Assembly: GCA_023249305.1 (NCBI GenBank)
Contig: JAHFCU010000004.1
Span: 10,399 to 74,398, forward strand
DNA: 64,000 nucleotides
From: Gemmatimonadota bacterium
Lineage (GTDB): Bacteria; Gemmatimonadota; Gemmatimonadetes; Gemmatimonadales; Gemmatimonadaceae
Reading direction: 5' to 3'
Part shown: positions 10,906 through 57,207 of the stretch, in pieces
Numbering within the stretch: the stretch's first letter is position 1
Layout of the letters: each line of letters begins with the position of its first letter
The notes under the pieces: generated by a model
Told to the model about the DNA's origin: nothing
Seen by the model: only the letters and a program-made list of their open reading frames with translations
The model's database searches: none
Program-made: the position numbers and the translations under genes

Positions 10906-11026
10906 GGCTGGTTGGGCGTGATACCGAAAGAAAGGCGCGCACGCTAGCTTGAGCGTCACCCCAAGATACGATGTCGGCGCGCCCCGCGGCTGCCGCGGTC
11001 GCGCCGGTCGCGCGGAGGCCCCCCGT

Positions 11027-11971
11027 ATGACCACGACGTCCACGGCGTCCGAAGATTCCTCCCGGCTCGCGCAGTTCGAGGCGCGAATCGCCGCGGACGA
11101 GTCCATCGAACCGAAGGACTGGATGCCCGAGCGCTACCGGAAGCAGTTGATCCGGATGATGGCGCAGCACGCGCATTCCGAGGTGGTGGGAATGCTCCCC
11201 GAGGGGAACTGGATCACGCGCGCGCCGACGCTGCGGCGCAAGATGGTCCTGCTGGCCAAGGTGCAGGATGAGGCCGGCCATGGTCTCTACATCTACTGCG
11301 GCACCGAGACGCTCGGCGTGGACCGCCACGACCTCGTGCAGGAACTGCTCGACGGCAAGGCGAAGTACTCGAGCATCTTCAACTACCCGACGCTGACCTG
11401 GGCGGACATCGGCGCCATCGGCTGGTTGGTGGACGGCGCGGCGATCGTGAACCAGACCATGCTCGCCAAGGCCTCGTTCGGACCGTACGCCCGGGCGATG
11501 GTGCGCATCTGCAAGGAAGAGAACTTTCACAAGCGCCAAGGTTACGAGATCATGGCGACCCTCGCGCGCGGCACGGGCGCCCAGCGCGCCATGGCGCAGG
11601 ATGCGCTCAACCGGTGGTGGTGGCCGTCGCTGATGATGTTCGGCCCGCACGACAAGGACTCGACGAACAGCGACGAGCTGATGCGCTGGGGCATCAAGCG
11701 CAAGAGCAACGACGAGCTGCGCCAGCGCTTCGTCAACATGACCATCGTGCAGGCGCAGGCGATTGACCTCACGGTGCCCGATGCCGACCTGAAGTACAAC
11801 GAGATGACCGGAGACTGGGAGACGGGGCCGATTGACTGGGACGAGTTCTGGCGCGTGGTCAAGGGCAACGGACCGTGCAACAAGGAACGGCTCGACGCAC
11901 GGCGCAAGGCAGACGCTGATGGCGCCTGGGTGCGCGCGGCAGCGTCGGCGTACGTGGAGAAACACGCATGA
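11027..11971 (+). CDS. paaA: 1,2-phenylacetyl-CoA epoxidase, catalytic subunit A
   Basis: ORF 10949..11971, trimmed to ATG 11027. It has di-iron ferritin-like motifs ([11 protein letters not shown] ... DEAGHG). There is an ATGA overlap with paaB. Confidence 0.9.
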
Positions 11972-12267
11972 CCCAGTCTCCCGCCGAGAGATCCTGGCCG
12001 CTTTGGGAGGTTTTCACCCAGAGCAAGGAGGGTGAGCCTCACCAGCACGCGGGCAGCGTGCACGCCACTGACGCCGAACATGCGCTACAGAATGCGCGCG
12101 ACGTTTACGCGCGCCGCAACGAGGCCGTTAACCTCTGGGTCGTGCCGAGCGTGGTCATCACCGCGAGCACGCCGGAGGACGTTGGACCGTTTTTCGATCC
12201 GGCCAATGACAAGGCGTACCGACATCCGCAGTTCTACAAGGTGCCCAAGGGCGTGAAGGTCTTCTGA
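11968..12267 (+). CDS. paaB: 1,2-phenylacetyl-CoA epoxidase subunit B
   Basis: 99 aa. The sequence WPLWEVF...HAGSVHA.D.E.AL..ARD.Y.RR is typical of PaaB. The gene is translationally coupled on both sides. Confidence 0.9.
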
Positions 12268-13025
12268 TGCCGCCGCACCCCGCTCTCGTCCCCGCCCTGC
12301 TGCGGATCGGCGATGATCGCCTCGTGCTCGGCCACCGGACCTCCGAATGGTGCGGCCACGCCCCGATCCTCGAGGAGGACGTCGCGCTGGTCAACATCGC
12401 ACTCGATCTGATTGGACAGGCCAACCTCGTGCTGCAGCACGCGGGCGCGCTCGAAGGCACGGGGCGCGACCAGGATGCGCTTGCGTTCTTCCGCGAGGCG
12501 GTCGAGTTCCGAAACGCCCTTTTGTGCGAGTTGCCCAAGGGCGACTTTGGCGTGACGATCGTGCGACACTTCTTCCACAGCCTGTTCAGCGTGCTGCAGT
12601 GGGAGGCGCTGTCGCGATCAGCCGACACCACGCTCGCCGGCATCGCGGCGAAGGCGCTCAAGGAAAGCCGCTATCACGCGCGCCATTCGGGCGGGTGGGT
12701 GATCCGACTCGGCGATGGCACTGACGAAAGCCATCGACGTGCGCAGGAAGCAGTGGACGCGCTCTGGTCGTACACGGGCGAGCTCTTCATGCAGCCCGCG
12801 AATGAGGCGGACCTGGTCTCTGCCGGACTCACCCCGGACGTATCGACGCTCGAGCCCGCGTGGCGCGCGCAGGTGGACGACGTGCTGCGCCGCGCGACGC
12901 TCCGCGTCCCCGAGGTCGTGTGGATGCAGCGCGGCGGGCGCGACGGCCGGCACACCGAGCACCTCGGCCACATGCTGGCGGAAATGCAGATCGTCGCGCG
13001 GTCGCATCCGGGGGCGCAGTGGTGA
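12267..13025 (+). CDS. paaC: 1,2-phenylacetyl-CoA epoxidase subunit C
   Basis: 252 aa. The sequence LLRIGDDRLVLGHRTSEWCGHAPILEEDVALVNIALDLIGQA is typical of PaaC. There is a TGATG overlap with paaB. Confidence 0.85.
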   Translation: MPPHPALVPALLRIGDDRLVLGHRTSEWCGHAPILEEDVALVNIALDLIGQANLVLQHAGALEGTGRDQDALAFFREAVEFRNALLCELPKGDFGVTIVRHFFHSLFSVLQWEALSRSADTTLAGIAAKALKESRYHARHSGGWVIRLGDGTDESHRRAQEAVDALWSYTGELFMQPANEADLVSAGLTPDVSTLEPAWRAQVDDVLRRATLRVPEVVWMQRGGRDGRHTEHLGHMLAEMQIVARSHPGAQW

Positions 13026-13516
13026 GCACGCGCGCGCAGGTCCTCGCCTGGCTCGACGACGTCAAGGATCCCGAGGTTCCGGTGCTCTCGGTGGTGGAAC
13101 TCGGCGTCGTGCGTGACGCGCAAGTGGATGCCGACGGCGGCGTGACTGTCACTGTGACGCCGACGTACACTGGATGTCCGGCGATGCGCGTGATCGAGGA
13201 CTCTATCCGTGAGGCGCTGCTGCTGCGCGGCGCACCGCGCGTCACGGTGGCGACCGTGTTCACGCCGGCGTGGACCACCGATTGGATTCCCGAATCAGCG
13301 CGTGCGAAACTCGAGGCCTACGGCATCGCGCCGCCCGGCCCGGCGAGCGCGGTGGACGAACTCGTGCCGTTGCGGCGCGCGGACATCGCGGTCCGTTGCC
13401 CGTGGTGCAAGTCCATGCACACGACACTGCGCAGCGAGTTCGGCAGCACGTCGTGCAAGGCGCTGTGGGTCTGTGACGAGTGCCGTCAGCCGTTTGAGGC
13501 GTTCAAGGCGATATAG
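13022..13516 (+). CDS. paaD: phenylacetate degradation protein PaaD (SUF/FeS-assembly-like domain plus C-terminal Cys cluster)
   Basis: ORF 12860..13516, trimmed to GTG 13022, which overlaps the paaC stop (GTGA). The sequence contains DPEVPVLSVVELGVVRD ... TPTYTGCPA ... CPWC....C..C. Confidence 0.8.
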   Translation: MSTRAQVLAWLDDVKDPEVPVLSVVELGVVRDAQVDADGGVTVTVTPTYTGCPAMRVIEDSIREALLLRGAPRVTVATVFTPAWTTDWIPESARAKLEAYGIAPPGPASAVDELVPLRRADIAVRCPWCKSMHTTLRSEFGSTSCKALWVCDECRQPFEAFKAI

Positions 13517-13522
13517 CTTGCG

Positions 13523-13575
13523 CAGAGAACAACAGAGAACAACAGAGAACAACAGACTACAACAGACCAAGACAG
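13523..13575 (+). repeat. decamer tandem array A: (CAGAGAACAA)x3-CAGACTACAA-CAGACCAAGA-CAG
   Basis: Read directly from the sequence. The period is 10 bp, and the array starts 7 nt after the paaD stop. Confidence 0.95.
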
Positions 13576-13673
13576 CTTCGCCTTGGAGGGGCCGAGGGAG
13601 CGGACGCCTTCTTTCGTTTCCTCCCGAAACGATTTGATGCGTGTGCAGCGTGACTCGGAGCGTAGGGTGCCGC

Positions 13674-14081
13674 ATGCACCAGTACGAGAAACTCCAGCTC
13701 TGGAAGCGGGGGATTGCGCTGGCCGCTCACCTGCTTCGTCGGGCGCGAGCCGCTGGCGGGGCTTGGGGGGAACGGGCACTCTGGGAACAGATCACCAGGG
13801 CCGCCACGAGCATTCCTACAAATGTCGCTGAGGGCGCGCAGCGTGGATCGAACCGGGAGTTTGCGCGCTTCCTCGGGATTGCCACGGGCTCAGCCGCTGA
13901 ACTGCACTCGCTGATCTACCTCGCCGCCGAGGGCGGATCGCTCGGCCGGTCGGAGGCTCAGACGCTCGCTGGTGAAGCACAACAGCTTCGACGGATGGCC
14001 GCCGCCCTGCGCGCCCGCGCTGAAGGTTCTCGCAGAGAGAGCACTGAGCGCAGGGCAGAGCGCGTGCGCCGCCGGATCTGA
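13674..14081 (+). CDS. four-helix-bundle protein (23S rRNA intervening-sequence protein family, TIGR02436/PF05635 type)
   Basis: ORF 13641..14081, trimmed to ATG 13674. The sequence is YEKLQLWKRGIALA...QITRAATSIPTNVAEGAQRGSNREFARFLGIATGSAAELHSLIYLA, which is the family signature (IP.NIAEG, F..FL.IA.GS..E). Confidence 0.85.
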   Translation: MHQYEKLQLWKRGIALAAHLLRRARAAGGAWGERALWEQITRAATSIPTNVAEGAQRGSNREFARFLGIATGSAAELHSLIYLAAEGGSLGRSEAQTLAGEAQQLRRMAAALRARAEGSRRESTERRAERVRRRI

Positions 14082-14102
14082 CTCGAACGCGTTCGCCCTG
14101 CC

Positions 14103-14168
14103 CCTCTGTTGTAGTCTGTTGTAGTCTGTTGTAGTCTGTTGTACTCTGTTGTGCTCTGTTTCACTCTG
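14103..14168 (-). repeat. decamer tandem array B; reverse complement reads CAGAGTGAAA-CAGAGCACAA-CAGAGTACAA-(CAGACTACAA)x3-CAGAGG
   Basis: Read directly from the sequence. The array is inverted relative to array A and ends 2 nt before the stop codon of the convergent E1 gene. Confidence 0.95.
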
Positions 14169-14170
14169 CG

Positions 14171-16267
14171 CTATAGCGCCACTAGCGCCTCGATCCGCTC
14201 GCCAATCCGCTCCACCGTCGGCACGATCGCGTTGAGCAAGTCGGTGTGATACGCGACGGGAATGTCGGCTGGCGCGAGCCGCTGCACCGGCGCGTCGAGG
14301 TGCCAGAACGCGTCGCTTGCCACCGTCGCCGCGATTTCCGCGCCGAATCCCGCGGTCAGGTTGTCCTCGTGCACCACGAGGCAGCGCCCCGTCTTCTCGA
14401 CCGACGCGAGCACCGCCGCCTTGTCCCACGGCGCCACCGTGCGCAGGTCAATGAGCTCCACCGCGCCGCCGAATCGCTCCGCGGCTTCGGTGCACCGAAG
14501 CACCATCGCGCCCCACGTGACGACCGTGAGGTCCGTTCCCTCACGCACCACGCGCGCACGGCCGAAAGGCAGCACGTACTCGTCACCCGGGTATGGCGCG
14601 CTGCCGTCGGACGTCATCAGCAGCGAGCGGTGCTCGAAGAAGATCGCGGGATCGAGCCCGCGCATCGCGGCGCGCAACAGCCCGACGGCGTCGGACGCGT
14701 TGGAGGGAACTGCCACGTGCCACCCGTACGCATGCGCGAAGCGCACCTCGTCAGAGAGCGAATGCCACGGATCGCCGACATCCTTGCCGAATCCGCCCGG
14801 CATCCGCACGATGACCGGCGCGGCGAACCGATTGCGCGTGCGCCAGCGCATCGTGCCGAGGTTGTTCAGTTGCTCGGCGGCTGGATCGGCGTACTTGCGG
14901 AACTGGATCTCGGTGACGGGGACGAGCCCGGCGATCGCCATCCCGGACGCACGCCCGATGATGCCCTCCTCCGACAGCGAGGTGTCGAACACGCGCGCCG
15001 CGCCGTGCTTCTTCTGCAGGCCTTCCGTGACGAGGTGCACGCCGCCCTTGCGGCCGACGTCTTCGCCGAAAACGAGCACGCGCGGATTCGCGGCGAGTTC
15101 CACGTCCAGCGTGCGGCGCACGGCCTCCTGGAAGCGCAGCACCGTGCCGCCCAGCGACGGCTTGTCCGTGCCGCGCAGTCGCGTACGCTCCGCCGCCGGC
15201 ATGCCGCCCATGACCGCGGCTTCCTCGTCGCCGTAGACGAAGCGCCCCACCTCCGCTGCACTGGGCGCCGGCCGCGCGCGCGCCGCATCCACCGCCGCGC
15301 GCACCTCGTCGTCCACTGAGCGCATCATGTCGTCCCACGCGCGCGCCGTCATGAGCGCCGGCACGAGATACGCCTTGAGCTTCGGCAACGGGTCGCGCGT
15401 GAAGTCGGCCGCGATTTCCTCGTCGGTGCGATATCCCTTCTGGTTGTCCGGTCCGGAATGGCTGTTGAGTCGCGGCACGGTGAGATGCACCAGCGCGGCG
15501 CCGCATCCTGAACGGACGTGCGCGACGCATTCGGCCAACAGTCGCGCGGTCTCATCCGGGTTGGTGCCATCGCCGTCGCGAATGAACAGCTCGCCGAACG
15601 ACTGCAAGTTGCGCGCGATGTTCGCTCCTGGAGTCTGCATCGCGCCGCGCACCGAGATGCCGAGGTCGTTGTCCTCGATGTAGAACAGCATCGGCAGCCT
15701 GAGCGTCGTCGCCATTGTCAGCGCTGACCAGAAGCCGTTAGTCGCCACCGACCCGTCGCCGCCAAGCACGACGCCGATGGCGCCCTCGTACGACTCGTCC
15801 TTGAGCACGTCGCGATGATACGTGACGGCCTGCGCCCAGCCGGCAACCGGCGTGTACTGCGAGCCCACATCACCGGACATTGGCAGCACGGTGCAGCCGC
15901 TGCCGGGACGCGGCAGGTTGCACACGACGCCGATGTCGCGGCCGTCGCTGAAGCCGCCGGCGCGCCCCAGCGGGCTTCCGTGCGCGTCTTCGAGGCTCAG
16001 GCCCAGCGACAGGAGCAGCGGTCGCGAGCGGTAGTACGCCCCCGCGGCGTCGTGCGCTCCGGTCAGCAGTGACCCGAGGATCACCTGCGCCACTTCGTGG
16101 CCCTTCGCCGAGAACTGGTACTGGACCACGTGCTCCTTGGGCGTCGTCGCCTTCGAGCGATTTAGCAGCTCCTCGAGGTCGTCGAGGGTGCGCGACGCGA
16201 CGGCCGTGCGGGCAATCCGCACCCAGTCAAACTGCGGATCGGGAGAGGCGGCGTTCTTGGCGGCCAT
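14171..16267 (-). CDS. fused 2-oxoacid dehydrogenase E1 component (alpha/beta fusion, thiamine-diphosphate dependent)
   Basis: ORF 14171..16318, trimmed to ATG 16267. The N-terminal half has the TPP motif GGDGSVATNGFW...LPMLFYIEDNDLGIS. The C-terminal half is E1-beta-like (VLVFGEDVG..GGVH.VT.GL...FDT.LSEEGIIG). No E2 or E3 gene is nearby. Confidence 0.85.
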   Translation of the reverse strand: MAAKNAASPDPQFDWVRIARTAVASRTLDDLEELLNRSKATTPKEHVVQYQFSAKGHEVAQVILGSLLTGAHDAAGAYYRSRPLLLSLGLSLEDAHGSPLGRAGGFSDGRDIGVVCNLPRPGSGCTVLPMSGDVGSQYTPVAGWAQAVTYHRDVLKDESYEGAIGVVLGGDGSVATNGFWSALTMATTLRLPMLFYIEDNDLGISVRGAMQTPGANIARNLQSFGELFIRDGDGTNPDETARLLAECVAHVRSGCGAALVHLTVPRLNSHSGPDNQKGYRTDEEIAADFTRDPLPKLKAYLVPALMTARAWDDMMRSVDDEVRAAVDAARARPAPSAAEVGRFVYGDEEAAVMGGMPAAERTRLRGTDKPSLGGTVLRFQEAVRRTLDVELAANPRVLVFGEDVGRKGGVHLVTEGLQKKHGAARVFDTSLSEEGIIGRASGMAIAGLVPVTEIQFRKYADPAAEQLNNLGTMRWRTRNRFAAPVIVRMPGGFGKDVGDPWHSLSDEVRFAHAYGWHVAVPSNASDAVGLLRAAMRGLDPAIFFEHRSLLMTSDGSAPYPGDEYVLPFGRARVVREGTDLTVVTWGAMVLRCTEAAERFGGAVELIDLRTVAPWDKAAVLASVEKTGRCLVVHEDNLTAGFGAEIAATVASDAFWHLDAPVQRLAPADIPVAYHTDLLNAIVPTVERIGERIEALVAL

Positions 16268-16360
16268 GGCCAGACAAATATCGGAGCCGTGACGGGTGGC
16301 CGGAAGCGGCACCGTCACGGCATTATTGTACGGAGTTGCTGCCAGGCACAGTCGCGCATC

Positions 16361-16516
16361 GCCGTCCGTCGTCTGTCGTCGTCTGTCGTCGTCTGTCGTC
16401 GTCTGTCGTCGTCTGTCGTCGTCTGTCGTCTGCTGTCGTCTGCTGTCGTCTGCTGTCGTCTGCTATCGGCCGCTCGCCGTCCGCCGTCTGCCGTCCACCG
16501 TCTACCGTCCGCCGTC
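16361..16516 (-). repeat. decamer tandem array C: plus strand (GTCTGTCGTC)x6-(TGCTGTCGTC)x3 plus a degenerate period-10 tail; reverse complement CAGACGACGA
   Basis: Read directly from the sequence. There are about 15 units in the same orientation as array B. The array ends 1 nt before the paaG ATG. Confidence 0.95.
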
Positions 16517-16517
16517 A

Positions 16518-17300
16518 ATGCCCCCCCTGCTTGTCACCCGCGATTGCGGCGTGCTTCGCCTCACGCTGAACCGGCCGGACGTCCTGAACAGCTTCACGCG
16601 TGAGCTCTCGCACGCGGTGCAGCAGGCGCTGCGTGACGCGGCCAGCGATGACATCGTGCGCGCGGTGCTGCTTACCGGCGCGGGGCGCGGCTTCTGCGCC
16701 GGCCAGGACTTGGCCGAGGCGATGCCCGCGGACGGAACTGTTCCCGATCTTGGCGACTTCGTGCGTGACTCGTGGAATCCGGTCGTGAGCGCCATTCGCC
16801 ACCTGGAGAAGCCCGTGGTGTGCGCGGTGAATGGCGTCGCGGCCGGGGCGGGCGCGAATCTCGCGTTCGCCTGCGACATCATCTTCGCGGCAACCACCGC
16901 GACCTTCGTGCAGTCGTTCACGAAGATCGGCGTTATTCCCGATAGCGGCGGCACGTTCATCCTGCCGCGCCTCGCGGGCCTGCATCGCGCCGCAGTGATG
17001 ACGATGCTCGCCGAGAAGATGACCGCCGAGCAGGCACAAGAGATCGGCCTCGTGTATCGCGTTGTCGCACCCGAGTCGCTCGTGGAGATTGCGTTCGCGA
17101 CGGCGGCGCACCTCGCCACGCAGCCAACGCGCGCACTCGGCCTCATCAAACGCGCGTTCAATCGCTCACTCGGCGTGGACCTCGACGCGCAGCTGGCGTT
17201 CGAGGAAGAACTGCAGCGCGAGGCGGGGCGTACCGCTGACTACGCCGAGGGCGTGCGCGCGTTTCTCGAGAAGCGCGCGCCGCGCTTCTCGGGCCGGTAG
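16518..17300 (+). CDS. paaG: 2-(1,2-epoxy-1,2-dihydrophenyl)acetyl-CoA isomerase (crotonase family)
   Basis: ORF 16296..17300, trimmed to ATG 16518; the longer frame only translates the repeat array. LRLTLNRPDVLNSF...LLTGAGRGFCAGQDL closely parallels E. coli PaaG. Confidence 0.8.
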   Translation: MPPLLVTRDCGVLRLTLNRPDVLNSFTRELSHAVQQALRDAASDDIVRAVLLTGAGRGFCAGQDLAEAMPADGTVPDLGDFVRDSWNPVVSAIRHLEKPVVCAVNGVAAGAGANLAFACDIIFAATTATFVQSFTKIGVIPDSGGTFILPRLAGLHRAAVMTMLAEKMTAEQAQEIGLVYRVVAPESLVEIAFATAAHLATQPTRALGLIKRAFNRSLGVDLDAQLAFEEELQREAGRTADYAEGVRAFLEKRAPRFSGR

Positions 17301-24730: not shown

Positions 24731-25756
24731 ATGCGATTCCGAAACCTCACCGTGGCACTCTCGTTCGCCGCGGCCCTGCCGCTGGCAGCGCAGACGTTTA
24801 CGCCGGTGGAAATCGGCGCGTATGGCCAGTACACAAAGTTCGCAGACGTGACGAAGCTCGACCCGGCGTTCGGGCTCGGAGGGCTCGTCAGCGTTCCGCT
24901 GTTTCAACGCTTCGCGTTTCAGTACGAAGGCGATTTCGGCTCAACGAACAGCAGCCGGGTCGGCGACCTCACCGCGTTGAACCACCGCTTCGACATCGTT
25001 TATCACGTGCCGATCGGCGATCGCCGGACCTTCTTCGTGGGCGGTGGTTGGACGGGATCGCAGTATCGCACCGATACGACGAAGAACCAGTACGACTCGG
25101 GCCTGAACCTCCAGGCCGGTTTTCGCTTCTGCCTAGGCGACAACTGGGCGCTGCGCACCAGCGCGGTGATGGACTTCAAGGATCCGTCCGACCAGATCCC
25201 GACGGGCGATCGGACGCAGACGTTGAGCCTGCGCGCGGGCATCAGCCGGTTCTTCGGCGGCAAGGACGCGAACTCGCCGTGCGTCGTGATCGTGCCGCCG
25301 CCCCCGCCACCGCCCGCTCCGGCACCTCCGCCCCCGCCTCCGCCGCCGCCGGCTCCCAAGCCTGCTGCCGCTCCGCCGCCACCACCGCCCCCGCCGCCGG
25401 CTCCGGCTCCGAAGCCACGCGAGATCTTCCGGCTCACCGGCATTTATTTCGACTTCGACAAGAGCGACCTGAAGAAGGCCGGCAAGGACACGCTCGAGGC
25501 CGCGGTGAAGTACTTGAATGCGAATCCGGGAGCTAAGGTGGAGATCCAGGGGCACACGGACAGCCTTGGTACCGATGCGTACAACCGATCGCTGTCGGAC
25601 CGGCGCGCCACCGTGGTGATGAAATACCTGCGGTCGCGCGGCATTGAAGCGTCGCGCATGAGCACCAAGGGCCTGGGTGAGAACGAACCAACGGCTGACA
25701 ACGGCACCAAGGAAGGACGCGCGCTGAACCGGCGCGCGGTGATCATCGAGTTGTAG
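24731..25756 (+). CDS. OmpA-family outer-membrane protein (beta-barrel, poly-proline linker, OmpA/MotB C-terminal domain)
   Basis: ORF 24578..25756, trimmed to ATG 24731 (AGGAGAG 8 nt upstream). The signal peptide is MRFRNLTVALSFAAALPLAAQ. The C-terminus reads FDFDKSDL...GHTDS.G...YN..LS.RRA..V..YL. Confidence 0.85.
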   Translation: MRFRNLTVALSFAAALPLAAQTFTPVEIGAYGQYTKFADVTKLDPAFGLGGLVSVPLFQRFAFQYEGDFGSTNSSRVGDLTALNHRFDIVYHVPIGDRRTFFVGGGWTGSQYRTDTTKNQYDSGLNLQAGFRFCLGDNWALRTSAVMDFKDPSDQIPTGDRTQTLSLRAGISRFFGGKDANSPCVVIVPPPPPPPAPAPPPPPPPPPAPKPAAAPPPPPPPPPAPAPKPREIFRLTGIYFDFDKSDLKKAGKDTLEAAVKYLNANPGAKVEIQGHTDSLGTDAYNRSLSDRRATVVMKYLRSRGIEASRMSTKGLGENEPTADNGTKEGRALNRRAVIIEL

Positions 25757-31624: not shown

Positions 31625-31790
31625 GTGATGCAGGACTTGGATTCAGGATTGCGATAGTGGGTTTGGATTCAGGATCGCGATAGACGATGGTTGGTGCGAT
31701 GGGGGGCTCCGCGAGGGGTCCCCCATCGTGCATCGAAATCAGTTATCCTAATCCTGAGTCGCAATCCTGAATCCAAATCCTCAATCGTCC
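31625..31790. repeat. composite low-GC intergenic repeat element (two direct and one inverted copy of TTGGATTCAGGATTGCGA around a GC hairpin)
   Basis: Copies lie at 31637-31654 (+), 31663-31680 (+, 1 mismatch) and 31759-31776 (-, identical). The central hairpin spans 31697-31728, with a 14-bp stem including G-U pairs and a GCGA loop. Confidence 0.8.
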
Positions 31791-31791
31791 G

Positions 31792-33033
31792 TTGAGCCGC
31801 ATCCTCCTCGTCGACGCCGACGCCTTCTTCGTCGCCGTGGCCCGCGCGGTGGATCCCGCGGGCGCCGGCGTGGCACGGCTGCTGATCGTCGGCGGCCGTC
31901 CGGGATCGCGCGGCGTCGTCTGCTCGGCGAGCTACGAGACGCGCGCCTTCGGCGTGCGCAGCGGCATGCCCATCTCGCAGGCGATGCGCCTCTGCCCGCA
32001 GGCGATGTGCGTGCCGGTGCCGCGCACGGCGTGCAGCGACACGAGCCGCGCCATCCGGCACGTCCTCGACCAGTTCACGCCCGTGGTCGAGGCGGCGAGC
32101 ATCGACGAGTGGTACCTCGACCTTTCGGGCACCGAGGCCCTCTACGGCCACGAGCCCGTCGCCGTAACGGCGCGGCGCATCCGCGACACCGTCGTCGCGA
32201 AGACGGGTATGCGCGTCTCGATTGGTGTCGGCCCCAACAAGCTCGTAGCCAAGCTCGCCGCGGAGCGGGCCAAGCCCAAACCGGGGACGCAGGCCACGGG
32301 CGTGCACGTCGTCGGGCAGGCGGATGTTGCCGCATTCATGGCCACGCTCGAACTCGGCGACATCCCAAGCATCGGCCCCAAACTGCAGGAGAAACTGAAG
32401 AAGGTCGGGTTGGTCGGCGTGCGTGACGTGCTCGAGGCGGATCCGGAGAACCTCGCGCGTTGGCTCGGGCGCGAGACGGCCTACCGTGTGCTCAGCAAGT
32501 CGCGCGGCGAGAGCCAAGCGGCGGTGGAACCGCACGCACCGGTCAAGCAGGTGAGCCGAGAGGAGACGTTTGATCGCGATGTCGCTGACGCGGCCGCGCT
32601 GCGTCACGAACTTCTCCTGCTCTCGCACCGCGTGGCCGCTGACCTGCGCCACGACGGTCTGGAAGCGCACACGGTGACCGTCAAGGTGCGCGACCAACGT
32701 TTCGTGACGCGCACGATCAGCCGCACGTTCGACGAGCCCATCTCGTCCGACGCCGCGGTTGCCGCCGCAGCCCGCGACCTGCTGCGCGAGCTGCGCACCG
32801 GCTGGACGATCCCGGTGCGGCTCGCGGGGGTCGCCCTCTCGCGGTTCACTCCGGCACGGGACGCCGAGCAGCTCACGATGTTCGATGCGGCCAAGTCCGT
32901 GGAGACGCCGCGCGACCGGGCGCTATCGCGCGCGGTGGATCGCGTCCGCGAGAAATTCGGCGACGCGTCTATCCGTGCCGGCGCGCCGCGGGCCACTCCG
33001 TTGGGCGAGAAGGGCGCGCGGAAGCCGCGCTGA
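31792..33033 (+). CDS. dinB: DNA polymerase IV (Y-family translesion polymerase)
   Basis: 413 aa with a TTG start. The sequence reads ILLVDADAFFVAVARAVDP ... CSASYETRAFGVRSGMP ... SIDEWYLDLSG ... RVSIGVGPNKLVAKLAA. Confidence 0.9.
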   Translation: MSRILLVDADAFFVAVARAVDPAGAGVARLLIVGGRPGSRGVVCSASYETRAFGVRSGMPISQAMRLCPQAMCVPVPRTACSDTSRAIRHVLDQFTPVVEAASIDEWYLDLSGTEALYGHEPVAVTARRIRDTVVAKTGMRVSIGVGPNKLVAKLAAERAKPKPGTQATGVHVVGQADVAAFMATLELGDIPSIGPKLQEKLKKVGLVGVRDVLEADPENLARWLGRETAYRVLSKSRGESQAAVEPHAPVKQVSREETFDRDVADAAALRHELLLLSHRVAADLRHDGLEAHTVTVKVRDQRFVTRTISRTFDEPISSDAAVAAAARDLLRELRTGWTIPVRLAGVALSRFTPARDAEQLTMFDAAKSVETPRDRALSRAVDRVREKFGDASIRAGAPRATPLGEKGARKPR

Positions 33034-33643: not shown

Positions 33644-35194
33644 ATGTATTCGTTGCTTCCGCTGCTGCTCGCCCTCGTCGCCGCCCGCGCCGATTCCGTT
33701 GACATCCTGATCAAGGGTGGCGCGGTGTACGACGGCTCGGGCAAACCCGCGGTGGTGACCGACGTCGGCCTGCGCGGCGACCGCATCGTCTTCATCGGCG
33801 ATGCGGCGAAGGCCAAGCTGAAGGCCGGCCAGGTCATCGATGCAAAGGGACTCATCGTCGCGCCGGGGTTCATCAACCCTCATTCGCACTCGATGGAAGG
33901 CGTCGAGCGCTTCAACGATGAGCGCCGGAAGAACATCCCCGAACTGATGCAGGGTATCACCACCGTCACCAACGGCCCGGACGGTCGTGGCCCCTACGAC
34001 GTGGCGCGCATCCAGGGCGAAACTGAGAAGAAGGGACTCGGCACCAACACGTTTGCGCTGGTGGGCTTTGGCACGGTGAAGAGCAAGGTGACGGGCAGCT
34101 CCTCGGCGCCGGCGACGATCGCGCAGGTGGACAGCATGCGCAAGCTCATTGACAAGGGGATGCGCGAGGGGGCGTTCGGCGTCGGCGCGGGGCTGTTCTA
34201 CGCACCGCAAAGCTACGCCTCCACCGAGGAGGCCATCGCCGTCATCTCCGCGGCCAAGCCCTACGGCGGCATTTACGATTCGCACCAGCGTGACGAGAGT
34301 TCGTATACCATCGGGCTTATGAACTCGACGCGCGAGGCGATCCGCATTGGGCGCGAGTCGGGGCTCGTCACCAACATCGGCCATGTGAAGGCACTCGGCG
34401 TGGACGTGTGGGGCTATGCCGACAGCGTCCTGCGGTTGATGCGCCAGGAGCGAGCCACGGGGCACATGGTCGTGGCCGACCAGTATCCATGGACGGCGAG
34501 CGGAACGGGGCTGAGCGCGGCCCTGCTGCCGCGGTGGGTGCAGGCGGGCGGGCGTGACTCGATGCTCGCGCGCATCGCCGATCCGGCGTTGAAGACGAAA
34601 ATGCTCGCCGAGATGCGCGACAACCTGCGCCGCCGCGGCGGCGACAGCACGCTGCGGCTGATCAACGGCGGCGAGAACGCCAAGCCGTACATCGGCAGGA
34701 CGCTCAAGCAGGTGGCGGCCGAGAAGGGGACGCCGGCCGTGGAGACCGCCCTGGAATTGATCCGCACGGGAGTCGACATGGGGGTCGCCTCGTTCAACAT
34801 GACCGAGGCGGACATCGAGACGTTCATGAAGGATCCATACGTGATGACGAGTTCGGACGGGTCGGGTGGCCACCCGCGGCTGTACGGCACGTATCCGCGC
34901 AAGATCCGGCGCTACGTGCTCGACAAGCCGGTGATCACGATGCAGCGCATGGTGCAGTCGTCGTCGGCGCAGGTCGCCGACGTGTACGGCCTCACGGAAC
35001 GTGGGTGGCTGAAGACTGGGTACTTTGCCGACGTCATCATCTTCGACCCAAAGACGATTCGCGAACTAGCCACGTACGAGGAGCCGGAGAAGCTGAGCGT
35101 CGGCATGCGTTGGGTGTTCGTGAATGGCAAGGCAGCGGTGGCGGACGGGCAGCCGACGGGGGTGATGGCTGGGAAGGCCTTGCGAAAGAGATAA
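33644..35194 (+). CDS. N-acyl-D-amino-acid deacylase (D-aminoacylase) family amidohydrolase, secreted
   Basis: ORF 33587..35194, trimmed to ATG 33644. It has a signal peptide, then ILIKGGAVYDGSG ... GLIVAPGFINPHSH (HxH metal site) ... SDG. Confidence 0.8.
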   Translation: MYSLLPLLLALVAARADSVDILIKGGAVYDGSGKPAVVTDVGLRGDRIVFIGDAAKAKLKAGQVIDAKGLIVAPGFINPHSHSMEGVERFNDERRKNIPELMQGITTVTNGPDGRGPYDVARIQGETEKKGLGTNTFALVGFGTVKSKVTGSSSAPATIAQVDSMRKLIDKGMREGAFGVGAGLFYAPQSYASTEEAIAVISAAKPYGGIYDSHQRDESSYTIGLMNSTREAIRIGRESGLVTNIGHVKALGVDVWGYADSVLRLMRQERATGHMVVADQYPWTASGTGLSAALLPRWVQAGGRDSMLARIADPALKTKMLAEMRDNLRRRGGDSTLRLINGGENAKPYIGRTLKQVAAEKGTPAVETALELIRTGVDMGVASFNMTEADIETFMKDPYVMTSSDGSGGHPRLYGTYPRKIRRYVLDKPVITMQRMVQSSSAQVADVYGLTERGWLKTGYFADVIIFDPKTIRELATYEEPEKLSVGMRWVFVNGKAAVADGQPTGVMAGKALRKR

Positions 35195-35253
35195 AGGATA
35201 TGGATTCAGGATTACGATAGAGGATTGGGATTGAGGATTTCGATTTTCGATTG
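35195..35253. repeat. copy of the GGATTCAGGAT repeat family followed by degenerate GGATT/CGATT units
   Basis: 35200-35217 ATGGATTCAGGATTACGA has 2 mismatches to the 31.6-kb copies. It is followed by AGGATTGGGATTGAGGATTTCGATTTTCGATTG. Confidence 0.7.
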
Positions 35254-35274
35254 CTCACCACCTTCCTGCTCATC

Positions 35275-42171: not shown

Positions 42172-43263
42172 ATGATAAACCTGCATCGCTCGCTGCTCTT
42201 CGCCGCCGTGATCGGCGGTGCTGCCCTTCCGATTCGCGCACAGAACCCCGCGCCTCCGGCCACGCCTCCGGCCACACCGCCGGCCACACCACCGGCCGCG
42301 CCGAGCGTAGCGGCGCCCGCCAGCCAGGCACAGACCGACAAGCCCGTGATCCCCGGGAAGACTGCCGCGCGTAAGAATGCCGCCGGCAAGCGCGCCAAGA
42401 ACGCGGCCGTGCCCGTGGATAGCGAGGCCAGGCTCGATTCAATCTTGAACTTGCGCTGGCCCGTGAAGGGACCGGAGCCATTGCCGGGCTCGGTCCTCCC
42501 GGGTAAGCGCATCGTGGCGTACTACGGCAATCCGCTGTCGAGGCGCATGGGCGTTCTCGGCGAATACGAACCAGAGCAGATGCTCGCTATGCTCGACAGC
42601 GAGGTGAAGGCGTGGACGCAAGCCGATCCGACGACGCCCGTGCAGCCGGCCCTGCAGCTCATCGCCGTTGTCGCACAGGGCAATGCGGGACCCGACGGCA
42701 GGTATCGTGCGCGTATGCCCGATACGCTCATCGAACGCGTCGCGTCGTGGGCAGCGAAGCGCAGTGCGCTCGTCTTCCTCGACATCCAGGTGGGCAAGAG
42801 CACGCTACAGGAAGAGCTGCCGCGCCTCGAGAAGTTCCTTTCGCGGCCGAACTTCCACCTCGGCATTGACCCCGAGTTCTCGATGAAGAAGGGCGGCGTG
42901 CCCGGCAAGAAGATCGGCACGTACGACGCCGAGGACGTGAACTACGCGTCGCGCTTCCTGCAGGAGCTCGTGACGCGCTACAAGCTTACGCCCAAGGTGC
43001 TGGTCGTGCACCGCTTCACGCGCAATGGCGTGACGAACACGCCGCGCATTATGCTCGACGCGCGTGTGCAGGTGGTGATGGATATGGACGGCTTTGGCCC
43101 GCCGCACCTAAAGCGCGGCACGTTTCGCTCGTGGATCAAGGCGGAGCCTGTGCAGTTCGTCGGCTGGAAGCAGTTCTACAAGCCGAGGAACGACAATCCG
43201 CGCACGACGATCGCGGAGATCCTGAAGCTCAACCCACGGCCACTGTATATACAGTACCAGTAG
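42172..43263 (+). CDS. hypothetical secreted protein with (PPAT)3 Pro-rich linker
   Basis: ORF 42076..43263, trimmed to ATG 42172 (MINLHRSLLFAAVIGGAALPIRAQ). No family assigned. Confidence 0.55.
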   Translation: MINLHRSLLFAAVIGGAALPIRAQNPAPPATPPATPPATPPAAPSVAAPASQAQTDKPVIPGKTAARKNAAGKRAKNAAVPVDSEARLDSILNLRWPVKGPEPLPGSVLPGKRIVAYYGNPLSRRMGVLGEYEPEQMLAMLDSEVKAWTQADPTTPVQPALQLIAVVAQGNAGPDGRYRARMPDTLIERVASWAAKRSALVFLDIQVGKSTLQEELPRLEKFLSRPNFHLGIDPEFSMKKGGVPGKKIGTYDAEDVNYASRFLQELVTRYKLTPKVLVVHRFTRNGVTNTPRIMLDARVQVVMDMDGFGPPHLKRGTFRSWIKAEPVQFVGWKQFYKPRNDNPRTTIAEILKLNPRPLYIQYQ

Positions 43264-53988: not shown

Positions 53989-56900
53989 GTGCGTCGTGCC
54001 CCGCGTCGTGCCTTAATTGCAGCAATCGCCGCTCTAGCGGCCGTCCTCCCCCACGTTGCTGGTGCCCAAGCGCGCGCGCCGTTCGACGCACTGCATTTCC
54101 GCGAGATCGGCCCCGCCGCCACCGGCGGTCGCATCCACGACGTGCAGATTGACCCGCGCAACCCGGCGGTGCTGTACGTCGCGTCCGCGTCGGGTGGCAT
54201 CTGGAAGTCCACCAACAAGGGACTCACCTGGAAGGACATCTTCGTGGGTCAGCCCGACAACACGTTCGGTGCGCTCGCCATCTTCGACGGGGACACTCGC
54301 ATCATCTGGGCCGGCACCGGCGAGCAGAACAATCGGCAGAGCTCGTCGTGGGGCGGCGGCGTCTATCGCACCACCGATGGTGGCGACTCGTGGAGCTTCC
54401 TCGGCTTGCACGACACGCGTTCGATAGGGCGCGTTGTCGCCCATCCGACCGATCCTGCCGTCGCTTGGGTGGCGGCCGTCGGAAACCTGTGGAAGCCGAC
54501 CGCCGAACGCGGCGTGTTCAAGACCACCGACGCGGGCCGCACGTGGACCAAGGTGCTCTACGTGGATTCGCTGACCGGCGCGACGGACCTCGTCATGGAT
54601 CCGCACAATTCGCAGGTGCTGTACGCCGCCACGTATCAGCGATTGCGCAAGACGTTCGGCTTCAACGGCGGCGGCCCGGGCAGCGCCATCTACAAGACCA
54701 CCGACGGCGGTGCGACGTGGACGAAGCTCGAGAACGGCGTCCCTGCCGGTGACCGGGGACGCATCGGCCTTGCCATCGCGCAGTCGCGCCCGGACGTGCT
54801 CATCGCGACCATCGAGCACGCGACAGCAGGAGGTACATACCGCACCGAGGACGCGGGCGCGACGTGGAAGCGCATGAGCGCCGCGAATCCGCGGCCGATG
54901 TACTACAGCAAGCCCACCATCGACCCGACCAACTCGCTGCGGGTCTGGCTTCCCGGCACGTACATCGTGAAGAGCGAGAACGGCGGCGCGACGTTCGAGG
55001 AGGCGCCGACATCGCCCACCTACGACGTCGGGCTCAAGACCGACCATCACGTGCTGCTCGTGGATCCTGCGAATCCGTCGCACATCTACGTCGGAGGCGA
55101 CGGCGGCCTGCACGAGAGCTTCGACATGGGGAAGACGTACATCCGCCTGAACAACATCCCCATCGGGCAGATCTACAAGATCGCCGTGGACGATCGCGAT
55201 CCGTATTGGATCTACGCTGGCTTTCAGGACAACCACTCCTTCATGGGCCCGAGCGCCACGCGGCACTGGCTAGGCATCCTCAACCAGGACTGGTTCGAAA
55301 TCGGTTTCAGCGACGGTACCGGCAAGGCGGTGGACAAGGCCGACTGGCGCAGGGTGTACTCGTCGTCGAGCGGCGGCAACTTGTCGCTCGCGGATCCGGT
55401 CACTGGCGATGTCATGGGCATCACGCCGCGCCCACCGCAAGGCGAGCCGCCTTACCGCTTCGACTGGGACGCACCGGTCATCGCATCCAGGCACACCGGC
55501 GGCACAGTGTATCTCGGCGGAAACCGGCTGTTCATCTCCAAGGACTATGGTTCGTCGTGGACGCGCACCGACGATCTCACGCGCAGTATCAACCGCGATA
55601 CGCTCGTGATGATGGGCGTGAAGAACCGCGACATCCGTCTTTCGCGCAATGATGGCGACGCGATCAGCGAGATCACGGCCATCGCCGAGTCGCCGCTCGA
55701 CGCGAAGATCCTCTGGGTCGGCACCGACGACGGCAACGTGCAGTTGAGCACCGACGGCGGCGCAACATGGAGCAATCTCAGCGCGAACATTCGCGGCGCG
55801 CCGGATGGCGCCTATGTTGGCGAGATCGTCGCGTCTGCCGCTTCCAGGGCCACCGCGTACGTGGCCATTGACGCGCACCGAGACGGTGACTTTGCGCCGT
55901 ATCTCGTCCGCACCACCGACTTCGGCCAGTCGTGGTCGGCCGTTACCAGCGGCCTGCCTCGCGACGACGCTTCCGTTCGCGCGCTCACCGAGTATCCGGG
56001 CAAGGCCAACGTGCTGTTCGCGGGCACGGAACGCGCGCTGTTCGTCACGCACGACAGCGGCGCGCACTGGAACAAGCTGAGCGCGAACCTCCCTACTACG
56101 CGCTACGATGACATTCTCGTGCACCCGCGCACGAAGGACCTCGTCCTCGGCACGCACGGACGCAGCCTGTGGTTGCTCGACGACGCCTCGCCGATCGCCG
56201 AGTGGACGCCGGAACTCGCCGCCAAGCGCGCGCACCTGTTCGCCGTGCCGCGCGCGACGCTGACGCTGTACTGGGAAGACGTGTCGAACATGGCGCACTA
56301 CTTCTACGCGGCGGAGAATCCCGCCGAAGGCGCTGCGTTCACGTACCATCTTGCACAGCCCGCGAAGCAGGTGCGCTTGCTCGTCACGACGAAGGACGGC
56401 AAGGCGCTGCGCGAGATCGCGGGCCCCACGGCCGCCGGCGTGATTCACCGCGTGCAGTGGGATCTTCGGTATCCGCTGCCGACGGGCGCGGCGCGCTTGG
56501 GCGGCGGCGGTGGCGGCGGTGAGGAAGGCGGCGGTGGCGGCGGCCCCGGCGCGCAACGCGCGGGCGTCGTCCAACTCCCGATTCCCGCGCACGACATCGC
56601 GGCGCGGGGCCCGATGGTGGCGCCCGGTGCGTTCAAGGTTTCGCTCGAGGTGGACGGTGTGATCGTCGAGTCGCGCTCCTTCGACGTGCGCGCTGATCCC
56701 GCCTCGACGCTGAAGCTCGCCGATCACAAGGCGCGCGAAGCGTTCGCCGTCGAAGTGATGCAGAAGCTCGCGCACATGGACTCACTCGCGGCGCGAATCG
56801 GCGCCAAGCGAGCCGCGTCCACTGGCGCGGAGGCCGAGCGGCTGCAAGCGCTCGAGCAACGGCTGGTTGGCGGGCGCGGTGTCTTCGGCGGCGGCGCGGG

Positions 56901-57207
56901 TGGCGGTGCGGGTGGCGGCGCGGGTGGCGGCGCGGGTGGTGGCGCGGGTGGTGGCGCGGGTGGCGCCGGCGGCGCTGGTGGCGGACCCGGTGGACGCGGA
57001 CCGCAGGCGGTGCGCCAGCGCCTCGGCACGCTGCTCTCGGTCTATGCGAGCTCGGGGGCACGCACGGGCACGATGTCGCCGCCGACTGGTGCGATGCGCA
57101 CGACGCTCATCGAGGCGAAGAACGAACTGTCCACGATCGAGCGGGAATTCGCGGACGCGGTCAAGTCGACGAAGCCGACGCCATCGCCAGCCCCGAAGTC
57201 GCCCTAA
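53989..57207 (+). CDS. sortilin/VPS10-like BNR (Asp-box) repeat beta-propeller protein with Gly-rich inserts
   Basis: ORF 53842..57207, trimmed to GTG 53989, just past the preceding gene. It has a signal peptide. There are many Asp-box motifs (S.DGG.TW: TTDGGDSW, TTDAGRTW, TTDGGATW, TEDAGATW, STDGGATW, THDSGAHW). Confidence 0.8.
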   Translation: MRRAPRRALIAAIAALAAVLPHVAGAQARAPFDALHFREIGPAATGGRIHDVQIDPRNPAVLYVASASGGIWKSTNKGLTWKDIFVGQPDNTFGALAIFDGDTRIIWAGTGEQNNRQSSSWGGGVYRTTDGGDSWSFLGLHDTRSIGRVVAHPTDPAVAWVAAVGNLWKPTAERGVFKTTDAGRTWTKVLYVDSLTGATDLVMDPHNSQVLYAATYQRLRKTFGFNGGGPGSAIYKTTDGGATWTKLENGVPAGDRGRIGLAIAQSRPDVLIATIEHATAGGTYRTEDAGATWKRMSAANPRPMYYSKPTIDPTNSLRVWLPGTYIVKSENGGATFEEAPTSPTYDVGLKTDHHVLLVDPANPSHIYVGGDGGLHESFDMGKTYIRLNNIPIGQIYKIAVDDRDPYWIYAGFQDNHSFMGPSATRHWLGILNQDWFEIGFSDGTGKAVDKADWRRVYSSSSGGNLSLADPVTGDVMGITPRPPQGEPPYRFDWDAPVIASRHTGGTVYLGGNRLFISKDYGSSWTRTDDLTRSINRDTLVMMGVKNRDIRLSRNDGDAISEITAIAESPLDAKILWVGTDDGNVQLSTDGGATWSNLSANIRGAPDGAYVGEIVASAASRATAYVAIDAHRDGDFAPYLVRTTDFGQSWSAVTSGLPRDDASVRALTEYPGKANVLFAGTERALFVTHDSGAHWNKLSANLPTTRYDDILVHPRTKDLVLGTHGRSLWLLDDASPIAEWTPELAAKRAHLFAVPRATLTLYWEDVSNMAHYFYAAENPAEGAAFTYHLAQPAKQVRLLVTTKDGKALREIAGPTAAGVIHRVQWDLRYPLPTGAARLGGGGGGGEEGGGGGGPGAQRAGVVQLPIPAHDIAARGPMVAPGAFKVSLEVDGVIVESRSFDVRADPASTLKLADHKAREAFAVEVMQKLAHMDSLAARIGAKRAASTGAEAERLQALEQRLVGGRGVFGGGAGGGAGGGAGGGAGGGAGGGAGGAGGAGGGPGGRGPQAVRQRLGTLLSVYASSGARTGTMSPPTGAMRTTLIEAKNELSTIEREFADAVKSTKPTPSPAPKSP

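Follow-up and report, generated by a model that had tools for sequence, protein, structure and literature searches.

Array C is a tandem repeat tract immediately upstream of the phenylacetate-degradation gene paaG in a 64-kb stretch of Gemmatimonas DNA, and we describe here its composition, its counterparts in related loci and its probable role as the 5' leader of paaG. The whole analysed stretch of 64,000 nt is referred to as the window and all coordinates are in window numbering. The window encodes PaaA, PaaB, PaaC and PaaD at 10949-13516 on the plus strand, followed by a gene for a four-helix-bundle protein of the type found in 23S rRNA intervening sequences (IVS), by a fused E1 alpha/beta dehydrogenase gene on the opposite strand and by paaG, the first gene of a paaG-paaH-thiolase...paaZ-like series. 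These gene calls had been made in a first-pass annotation of the same DNA and are upheld by Pfam and NCBIfam, with PaaG scoring 344.1 bits against TIGR02280, whose cut-off is 345.15. Known RNA families and rRNA, both searched with Rfam, and tRNAs were not found in the 64-kb window. The features of the locus are as follows.

13520-13575, plus strand: array A (CAGAGAACAA x3, CAGACTACAA, CAGACCAAGA), the 5' inverted arm of a cassette around the IVS-protein (IVP) gene, beginning 4 nt past the paaD stop
13674-14081, plus strand: IVP gene (four-helix bundle, 23S rRNA IVS protein, Avd-like; PF05635 at 3.2e-23, TIGR02436 at 83 bits)
14104-14171, plus strand: array B (decamers of the TTGTAGTCTG type), which abuts the stop of E1 and forms the cassette's inverted arm on the 3' side
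14171-16267, minus strand: fused E1 alpha/beta thiamine-dependent dehydrogenase (Pfam E1_dh, Transket_pyr and Transketolase_C)
16268-16359, no strand assigned: non-repeat part of the divergent E1/paaG spacer, about 92 nt (from alignment A1, which comprises nine genus-level E1/paaG spacers)
16360-16366, plus strand: a single CGCCGTC heptamer preceding the decamers on their 5' side (unit parsing, pattern search)
16367-16466, plus strand: decamer block made up of CGTCGTCTGT x6, CGTCTGCTGT x3 and a single degenerate CGTCTGCTAT (Tandem Repeats Finder (TRF), repeat search, unit parsing)
16467-16516, plus strand: pyrimidine-rich heptamer tract NNCCGTC, about 7 copies (TRF, pattern search, unit parsing, relatives)
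16518-17300, plus strand: paaG, 2-(1,2-epoxy-1,2-dihydrophenyl)acetyl-CoA isomerase (Pfam ECH_1; TIGR02280; N-terminus aligning from residue 1 in relatives)

Composition of array C and its counterparts in relatives

The spacer between the divergent start codons of E1 (16267, minus strand) and paaG (16518, plus strand) is 250 nt long and 62% of it is repeat, in good agreement with the approximately 60% estimated previously. Parsing of the units by hand and by script resolves array C into a composite of one heptamer, ten decamers and about seven heptamers. The decamer block spans 100 nt or 10 units with a lag-10 identity of 0.97, TRF reports a period-10 array at 16367-16460 with 9.4 copies, 97% matches and a score of 146, and the 20-nt double decamer occurs six times compared to none in 100 shuffles. 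The units are arranged as (CGTCGTCTGT)x6, (CGTCTGCTGT)x3 and one degenerate copy, which is the 6+3 order given in the first-pass annotation, where the tract was described as a decamer array of about 15 units ending in a degenerate tail. A strong array is indeed found at that place, but only ten of its units have period 10, and the presumed tail is not made of decamers, since the last 50 nt have a lag-7 identity of 0.77 and a lag-10 identity of 0.45; here TRF reports a period-7 array of CGCCGTC x6 at 16475-16516, and the heptamer pattern is matched 6 times where 1.18 matches are expected. The array has its 3' edge at 16516 and ends, as had been noted, 1 nt before the paaG start codon, a single A separating it from the ATG at 16518. 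The C unit is confined to this one site within the window.

Only three A are found in the entire 156-nt tract, and the paaG strand contains neither ATG, GTG or TTG nor any stop codon from 16339 to 16517. An open reading frame (ORF) at 16296-17300 accordingly runs through the array in frame with paaG, which is trivial because the near absence of A excludes stop codons. A coding function of the array was rejected, as protein homology begins at the ATG at 16518 and the length differences among relatives are not multiples of three.

Related loci were obtained from a PaaG scan with one genome per species (80 loci, nearly all Gemmatimonadaceae/Gemmatimonas, best identity 88%) and a metagenome scan with E1 (80 more loci, best identity 90%), and the proteins of the window were mapped on them by tblastn. 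These loci are designated by L numbers, and relatives are referred to as genus-level if their PaaG is at least 80% identical and as distant if it is less than 80% identical. A search for sequence from the same species gave no exact match to PaaG, for PaaB only a 1.2-kb contig, and for E1 the metagenome match of 90% at best. Pyrimidine-rich heptamer arrays are found upstream of the paaG ATG in 11 of the 12 genus-level spacers and end 2-10 nt before it, with lengths of about 20-85 nt and units such as CCTCTAC, CCGTCTC, TCTACCA, ATCCCAC, GCCATCC and GTCTCCC; the leader in L164 consists of about 12 CCGTCTG/CCGTCCG units. Apart from the decamers of the window the period is 7 in all of these arrays, and the 11 other spacers hold no decamers. 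The heptamers at 16467-16516 are thus the positional homologue of the arrays of close relatives and the older, conserved element of the tract, the decamer block is specific to this lineage since relatives hold period-7 arrays at the same position, and the single heptamer at 16360-16366 seems to be left over from a heptamer tract within which the decamers have expanded. The first-pass annotation had inferred phased protein binding from the period of one helical turn, a notion that is in poor agreement with orthologous arrays of period 7 and divergent units. A phased operator or iteron array was furthermore rejected because neither unit nor helical period is conserved at the orthologous site and because the invariant motifs of the spacer are located outside the array. 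The alternative suggestion of a repeat-length-variable leader holds insofar as array length does vary between species.

Arrays of this kind are widespread in the family. TRF, applied to related loci totalling 2.0 Mb with periods of 5-14 and a minimum of 3.8 copies, found 78 non-triplet arrays. Periods of 7 and 8 predominate, almost all of the arrays are intergenic, and many of them come as close as 0-10 nt to a start or stop codon. With a minimum of 4 copies, TRF found 38 arrays of period 7, 13 of period 8, 7 of period 10 and 5 of period 11 among the first 81 sequences. The genes next to these arrays were called on the basis of third-position GC content (GC3), a procedure that missed the IVP gene with its atypical GC3 and makes the assignments approximate; the arrays cited here were checked by eye. 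Orientation is consistent within the genus. Pyrimidine-rich units are found before the starts of paaG, of paaB in three relatives (L004, L007 and L084) and of the gene at 31792 in the window (array 31750-31788), and purine-rich units, which are approximately their reverse complements, after the stops of paaA (L003 and L004), paaD (the window, L003, L027 and L085) and E1 (the window, L003 and L011), a further purine-rich array following a stop at 35190-35254 of the window.

E1 and the IVP cassette

It had been proposed in the first-pass annotation that arrays A and C are the inverted ends of a 3-kb insert, located at 13.5-16.5 kb and comprising the IVP gene and E1, which splits a once-contiguous paa cluster. 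The paa genes are indeed contiguous in E. coli, A and C are mutually inverted and 70-80% alike per unit, and variable cargo at the paaD/E1 junction of relatives is indeed found between inverted decamer arms, as in L011, where the arms persist around 1.9 kb encoding a CHRD-like protein and a 4Fe-4S membrane protein. We nonetheless regard this model as extremely improbable. The gene order paaABCD(+), E1(-), paaG(+)-paaH-thiolase-paaZ is conserved across Gemmatimonadaceae, and the divergent E1/paaG pair is present in 118 loci, its spacer being at most 400 nt in 97 of them. An E1 gene at this position without arrays, which the annotation had itself named as contradicting its model, is what is seen in 75 of the 85 distant loci, the spacer holding an array in the other 10. 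The E1 segment is moreover not present or absent as a unit among relatives; only the convergent paaD/E1 gap varies, from 13 nt to 4.9 kb across about 100 loci, and paaD adjoins E1 directly in many of them (it abuts E1 in several genomes, namely L006, L044, L048 and L142, and gaps of 13-100 nt occur in several loci). Variable cargo is always located between paaD and E1 and never includes E1, the segment contains no genes other than those for IVP and E1 and hence no mobility gene (transposase or recombinase), and A pairs far better with B than with C.

Because the E1/paaG pair is so widely conserved and most distant spacers are free of arrays, E1 is an ancestral and fixed member of the Gemmatimonadaceae paa cluster rather than an insert. 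Within phenylacetate metabolism it might, for example, serve a 2-oxoacid step that feeds the pathway. The true inverted pair is formed by A and B, which enclose the IVP gene alone, and the comparison of loci points to this 0.65-kb IVP cassette as the variable or mobile element. For the locus as such this removes a false lead, in that there is no array-bounded insert and E1 is native, and it identifies the part that is probably mobile. Array C is a fast-evolving simple-sequence tract and not the border of inserted DNA.

The arms A (13520-13575) and B (14116-14171) are each 56 nt long and 86% complementary, and when the 660-nt A-IVP-B segment is folded as RNA A pairs with B around the ORF (z = -6.4 relative to shuffles). 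Pairing of A with C in RNA was considered and rejected, since it amounts to only about 7 of 10 positions per unit and would need 2.8 kb of read-through transcription antisense to E1, B being the better partner. The IVP gene has a GC3 of 0.71 compared to 0.83-0.85 in the neighbouring genes, which is consistent with recent acquisition. The same arm-flanked architecture is found in every Gemmatimonadaceae IVP gene retrieved (L003, L162/L163, L164, L165, L166, L167, L168 and L169/L170), and a PF05635 ORF lies within pairing inverted arms in the window and in 10 of 10 cassettes in relatives, with arms of 42-83 nt that are 78-100% complementary and that in 9 of the 10 Gemmatimonadaceae cassettes consist of tandem units of period 10 built on a CAGAG core. 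The positions of the cassettes are as follows.

Window: 13520-14171
L003: 7220-7814
L162: 2828-3483
L164: 2816-3555
L165: 2879-3514
L166: 2842-3428
L167: 2353-2948
L168: 2361-2975
L169: 2277-2969

Four intergenic sites are occupied, namely paaD/E1, ftsA/ftsZ, a site next to DciA (DciA/SMC-like) and one after MlaD (MlaD/TonB receptor). The orientation of the IVP gene with respect to paaD and E1 is reversed in L164, and orthologous paaD/E1 cassettes have different units (CAGAGAACAA, CAGAGTGCGA, CAGAGTACGA and CAGAGAACGG) that covary in such a way that both arms remain complementary. An IVP gene of Bacteroidota (L069, 8863-9307) is likewise found between inverted arms, in this case of 30 nt. The architecture is reminiscent of the 23S rRNA intervening sequences of Coxiella and Leptospira, which carry an S23p/IVP ORF and in which inverted repeats form a stem cleaved by RNase III (PMC4990558). 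Like these, the A/B cassette consists of a PF05635 ORF in stem-forming inverted repeats, is sporadic and looks horizontally acquired; unlike them, the cassettes are found in mRNA intergenic spacers and not in 23S rRNA helices, and their arms are period-10 tandem arrays. The IVP cassette therefore looks like an element of the 23S-IVS type living in mRNA spacers, from which array C differs in that it encloses nothing and has no inverted, cargo-enclosing partner.

The paaD/E1 junction is also a hot spot for cargo more generally (for example L011 92-2003, L081 8100-8790 and L027 1066-4018), including IVP, the CHRD-like gene with the 4Fe-4S membrane protein gene, and others, and decamer arrays are sometimes kept at one or both edges of such junctions in the absence of IVP. 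In a sister clade (L006, L007, L011, L027, L032, L035, L084 and L085) the paaG leader contains a hairpin with arms of the form (GCTNTAC)n ... (GTANAGC)n, an 'empty' inverted-array element with no gene inside.

The probable paaG leader

The genus-invariant motifs of alignment A1 are all located at 16268-16359 and comprise AATAT near the E1 ATG, GGGTGGCCGGAAGCGG and CATTATTGTACGG, and we infer that this region is a candidate promoter/operator region for both E1 and paaG. The invariant 16-mer GGGTGGCCGGAAGCGG is flanked by the partly covarying complementary segments GCCGTGACGG...CCGTCACGGC (16268-16335) and followed by CATTATTGTACGG, and the block formed by the two motifs may serve as operator or promoter, or may form a small hairpin within the leader of E1 or paaG. 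No sigma-70 consensus promoters were detected around the arrays, a scan that is uninformative as the family seems to use a TATCTT-like element, and terminator-like sites around the arrays do not exceed those in shuffles. A TATCTT-like hexamer is found 6-8 nt upstream of many starts in the window (46492, 63980, 8139, 10959 and 9597) and such an element also occurs upstream of paaG in eight relatives (L014, L015, L018, L024, L086, L090, L105 and L123); Shine-Dalgarno (SD) motifs are scarce, and E1 has GATATTT 7 nt before its ATG. Since the TATCTT-like -10 is often just 7-8 nt before the ATG, these observations suggest that leaderless mRNAs and a non-canonical -10 element are widespread in this family.

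In the case of paaG, transcription would start from the conserved block, which would make array C the 5' leader. The first-pass annotation had placed promoter, 5' untranslated region and ribosome-binding site inside the repeat, and this seems correct for the ribosome-binding region and most of the leader, but not for the promoter, for which the conserved block at 16268-16359 is the better candidate. An SD-like motif at -20 to -4 is absent from all 12 genus-level spacers, the heptamer tract taking the place of the SD, whereas 11 of 23 spacers in other genera contain one. In those genera paaG has either an SD (these 11) or a TATCTT element that precedes the ATG by 6-8 nt. The genus thus keeps a pyrimidine-rich, SD-less repeat leader at paaG while the unit turns over, whereas other genera use an SD or a leaderless start, and the last 40 nt of the 12 spacers average 75% pyrimidine, 16% G and 9% A. 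The first-pass annotation had also considered a structured leader, and the predictions are in clear disagreement with this. Array C has a minimum free energy (MFE) of -30.5 kcal/mol per 150 nt, compared to -60.8 +/- 9.2 for random windows (68% GC), of which 0.8% fold more weakly, and relative to shuffles there is no excess structure (z = +0.56). The predicted unpaired probability around the paaG AUG is 0.548, compared to 0.342 +/- 0.083 at random positions, none of 150 reaching 0.548. A structured leader or riboswitch was rejected on the same grounds, namely the z-score and an MFE among the weakest 1% of windows.

On balance we find it reasonably probable that array C is a composite slippage tract which constitutes almost the whole 5' leader of paaG and keeps its start accessible; it does not mark the boundary of an insert. 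Being poor in A, SD-less, free of start and stop codons and barely base-paired, the leader could form a single-stranded pyrimidine-rich platform reaching up to position -2 of the AUG, and such a platform would keep the paaG start accessible for SD-independent initiation. Plausible readers would be ribosomal protein S1 or single-strand binders of the cold-shock type, and the length of the tract would be free to mutate, having little if any role that depends on its sequence. The retention of such a leader throughout the genus makes paaG a convenient natural example for the study of SD-independent initiation in a little-studied phylum of high GC content.

Several points weigh against this interpretation. 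The paaG transcription start could lie elsewhere than upstream of the array, and the low degree of structure is a trivial consequence of strand asymmetry in base composition, so that selection need not be invoked. With 30% G, the decamer is richer in G than the heptamers of relatives and thus not optimised for being poor in it. Slippage and length polymorphism are deduced from differences between species only, and the orientation pattern of pyrimidine-rich units before starts and purine-rich units after stops rests on about 7 independent sites and was recognised only once the data had been inspected. The period of 10 is furthermore conserved across the IVP arms, which hints at a specific reader that the interpretation leaves out, and finally the same appearance would be expected of a tract that is purely neutral. 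The last point amounts to the notion that array C is a mutational by-product tolerated in the spacer without effect on expression. This is in agreement with the occurrence of the 78 non-triplet arrays in intergenic gaps of every type, with their rapid turnover and with the fact that heptamers are the commonest class of long simple-sequence repeats in prokaryotes, attributed to slippage in the work of Mrazek et al. (2007) as summarised in PMC4679880. It is made improbable, in our opinion, by the facts that an SD-less pyrimidine-rich array has been kept in 11 of 12 species of the genus despite complete turnover of its unit, that strand orientation relative to the gene is consistent, and that the paaG start is more accessible than all 150 random positions.

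Origin, kinship and parallels of the repeat

The reverse complement of the C decamer matches the A/B unit CAGACTACAA at 8 of 10 positions, as stated in the first-pass annotation, and on recomputation this match has a p of about 0.01 compared to random decamers. The repeat search likewise agrees with the earlier description of orientation, B and C being direct repeats that flank E1 and A being inverted relative to C. Kinship with A and B is further borne out by the C unit written as TCGTCGTCTG, which fits a frame of the cassette arms, TYGT-NN-TCTG with period 10, that is also followed by TTGTAGTCTG and TTGTTCTCTG in the window, by TCGTACTCTG in L162, L011 and L027 and by CCGTTCTCTG in L164 and L165. 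In addition, the arm unit of L169 (CTCTGTCGTC) is identical to the C unit written as GTCTGTCGTC at 9 of 10 positions. Units related to C are also found upstream of paaB in the three relatives mentioned above, upstream of the CHRD-like gene of L081, and as cassette arms, and the array in L081, (CGCCGTCCTC)x6 about 90 nt upstream of the gene, is a second solo decamer array. A purely local origin of the C unit, independent of A and B, is weakened by the frame shared with other cassette arms and by the match to L169. Conversely, array C was rejected as a cassette arm despite frame and period, since its sole inverted partner A, 2.8 kb away, pairs better with B and since E1 is not cargo; arrays A/B are 2.2 kb from C. 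We therefore regard array C as a solo representative of the arm-type arrays, one that seems to have grown within an older tract of heptamers.

How the decamers arose may be envisaged as follows. An older pyrimidine-rich heptamer tract (NNCCGTC or CCGTCTN), found genus-wide at the paaG start, would have come first, and in the present lineage this tract would then have acquired a decamer (TCGTCGTCTG) and recently amplified it to ten copies. The source of the decamer could be a 3-nt duplication inside a heptamer, TGCCGTC + GTC being identical to the decamer at 9 of 10 positions, or conversion from a cassette arm, and the heptamers CCGTCTG in turn look like the TYGT-NN-TCTG frame minus three bases. 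The tract would grow and shrink by replication slippage or unequal recombination, and because six identical decamers are followed by three identical variants the amplification was presumably recent; we thus consider array C to be probably a slippage-generated and recently expanded repeat tract. Perfect repeats of this sort are highly prone to slippage, and array length differs greatly between species, both of which would also suit a contingency locus, where gain and loss of units alters leader length and thereby switches or tunes the paaG operon in populations. Such phase variation is nonetheless decidedly improbable, since paaG encodes a ring-epoxide isomerase and is a housekeeping catabolic gene rather than one for surface, antigenic or host-interaction functions, since the array lies downstream of the conserved promoter-candidate block and leaves promoter geometry unaffected, and since the frame cannot matter in an array that is free of start and stop codons.

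A somewhat different view is that the arrays bind a specific reader, either an oligomeric Avd-like IVP pentamer or a protein of the Csp (cold-shock protein) or S1 type, by which paaG translation or transcription is controlled, and a period of 10 (or 7) would then mean one protomer per unit. The period of 10 with a CAGAG/CTCTG core in 9 of 10 cassette arms at four genomic sites is in agreement with this view, as are the fact that C shares the frame, the non-random orientation of the arrays relative to genes, the homology of PF05635 to Avd, the accessory protein of diversity-generating retroelements (PMC10053308), and the binding of one heptamer per protein by CspB (PMC4679880, PMC1904285). However, the units at the orthologous paaG sites are not conserved and have period 7 instead of 10, L001, L004 and L010 keep heptamer arrays with no IVP gene at the locus, and covariation of the arms could equally well reflect selection for a stem or recombination of one arm with the other, and we therefore hold a specific reader to be unlikely. 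It is similarly doubtful that the arrays and the Avd-like IVP genes make up one system in which IVP cassettes move from one operon spacer to another and solo arrays of the same unit family, like C, are binding platforms or footprints, and the link between solo arrays and repeat-armed IVP cassettes is speculative. If true, it would place ordinary genes such as paaG under IVP- or RNase III-dependent post-transcriptional control, and would add a non-rRNA, repeat-armed relative of the 23S intervening sequences with a trans-acting protein. The unit family common to solo arrays and IVP arms in any case provides a testable handle on the function of 23S-IVS/Avd-like proteins.

Array C is tandem, intergenic, start-proximal and SD-less, and thereby has the structural properties of a known class of repeats close to start codons. 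The closest parallel described is that of the TAACTGA heptamer direct repeats of marine Beggiatoaceae and some Cyanobacteria and Bacteroidetes, which are located just upstream of starts where they replace the SD, and for which S1, Csp and CsrA have been proposed as readers (MacGregor 2015, PMC4679880). B. subtilis CspB, for instance, prefers the pyrimidine-rich heptamer GTCTTTG/T (PMC1904285). Like the TAACTGA repeats, array C is head-to-tail, intergenic and in forward orientation, is positioned nucleotides from the start and over the expected ribosome-binding site without an SD, and belongs to arrays that have reverse copies after stops (PMC4679880). The TAACTGA repeats show unit-increment indels between relatives, and the arrays at the paaG start differ in length between species. 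It differs from them in that its unit is GC-rich and unrelated (CCGTCTN or TCGTCGTCTG) and belongs to a drifting family rather than being one fixed word, in that periods of 7 and 10 are mixed, in its occurrence in the phylum Gemmatimonadota and, with respect to this class, in its presence at a single site of the 64-kb window. Cyanobacterial heptamer repeats of the STRR (short tandemly repeated repetitive) type are a further parallel. In Nostoc PCC 7120 heptamers are found near starts and promoters, and deletion constructs suggested effects on regulator access and translation (bioRxiv 10.1101/2022.06.06.494920). These heptamers are, like array C, contiguous and abut or overlap the start codons of genes with a non-canonical SD, but the Nostoc tracts are AT-rich, have 3-8 copies and are backed by reporter assays, whereas array C is known from sequence alone.

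A broader class is that of the long simple sequence repeats, whose most frequent unit length is 7 nt and for which slippage has been proposed (Mrazek et al. 2007, as cited in PMC4679880). As summarised there, the class has units of 5-11 nt, is longer than expected by chance and is non-coding where units are not triplets, all of which is shared by the arrays considered here, and the distribution of periods fits as well. It is a statistical class, and the summary is silent on position relative to start codons and on kinship to the arms of gene cassettes. Expression of Moraxella catarrhalis UspA2 is tuned by AGAT repeats between promoter and start (as reviewed in PMC4679880), likewise a simple-sequence tract in a 5' untranslated region, and according to that review their copy number varies between strains. 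The review describes this as a surface gene of a host-adapted pathogen with demonstrated copy-number effects, whereas paaG is catabolic. A literature search for tandem repeats in Gemmatimonas or Gemmatimonadota gave no report. Array C is thus an ordinary kind of object for Gemmatimonadaceae, the new elements being the phylum, to which heptamer repeats at start codons are hereby extended, and the mixed period of 7 and 10 nt.

Other repeats were observed in the window and its relatives. A second unit family of the window consists of GGATT-type 13-mers (GGATTCAGGATTGCGATAG-type), and GGATTNNGGATT occurs 10 times compared to an expected 1.35. A GC-rich hairpin is enclosed by an inverted pair of arrays of these 13-mers (31637-31683 and 31750-31788), which stops 4 nt short of the gene start at 31792, and a single array at 35190-35254 fills the gap from the stop at 35194 to the next gene. 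The paaA and paaB genes overlap in the window and have no array between them; in relatives a purine-rich 11-mer array (CAGAGAAACAA x4) fills the paaA-paaB spacer after the paaA stop (L004 4804-5029, L003 5606-5652 and L007 5939-6006), and in L004 it is followed by 15-18 pyrimidine-rich heptamers GCCGTCC reaching to the paaB start. Finally, triplet-compatible repeats with periods of 3, 12, 30 and 54 are found inside long ORFs of the window at 25294-25416, 42251-42302 and 56890-56983, where they probably encode low-complexity protein segments rich in Pro, Gly and Ala.

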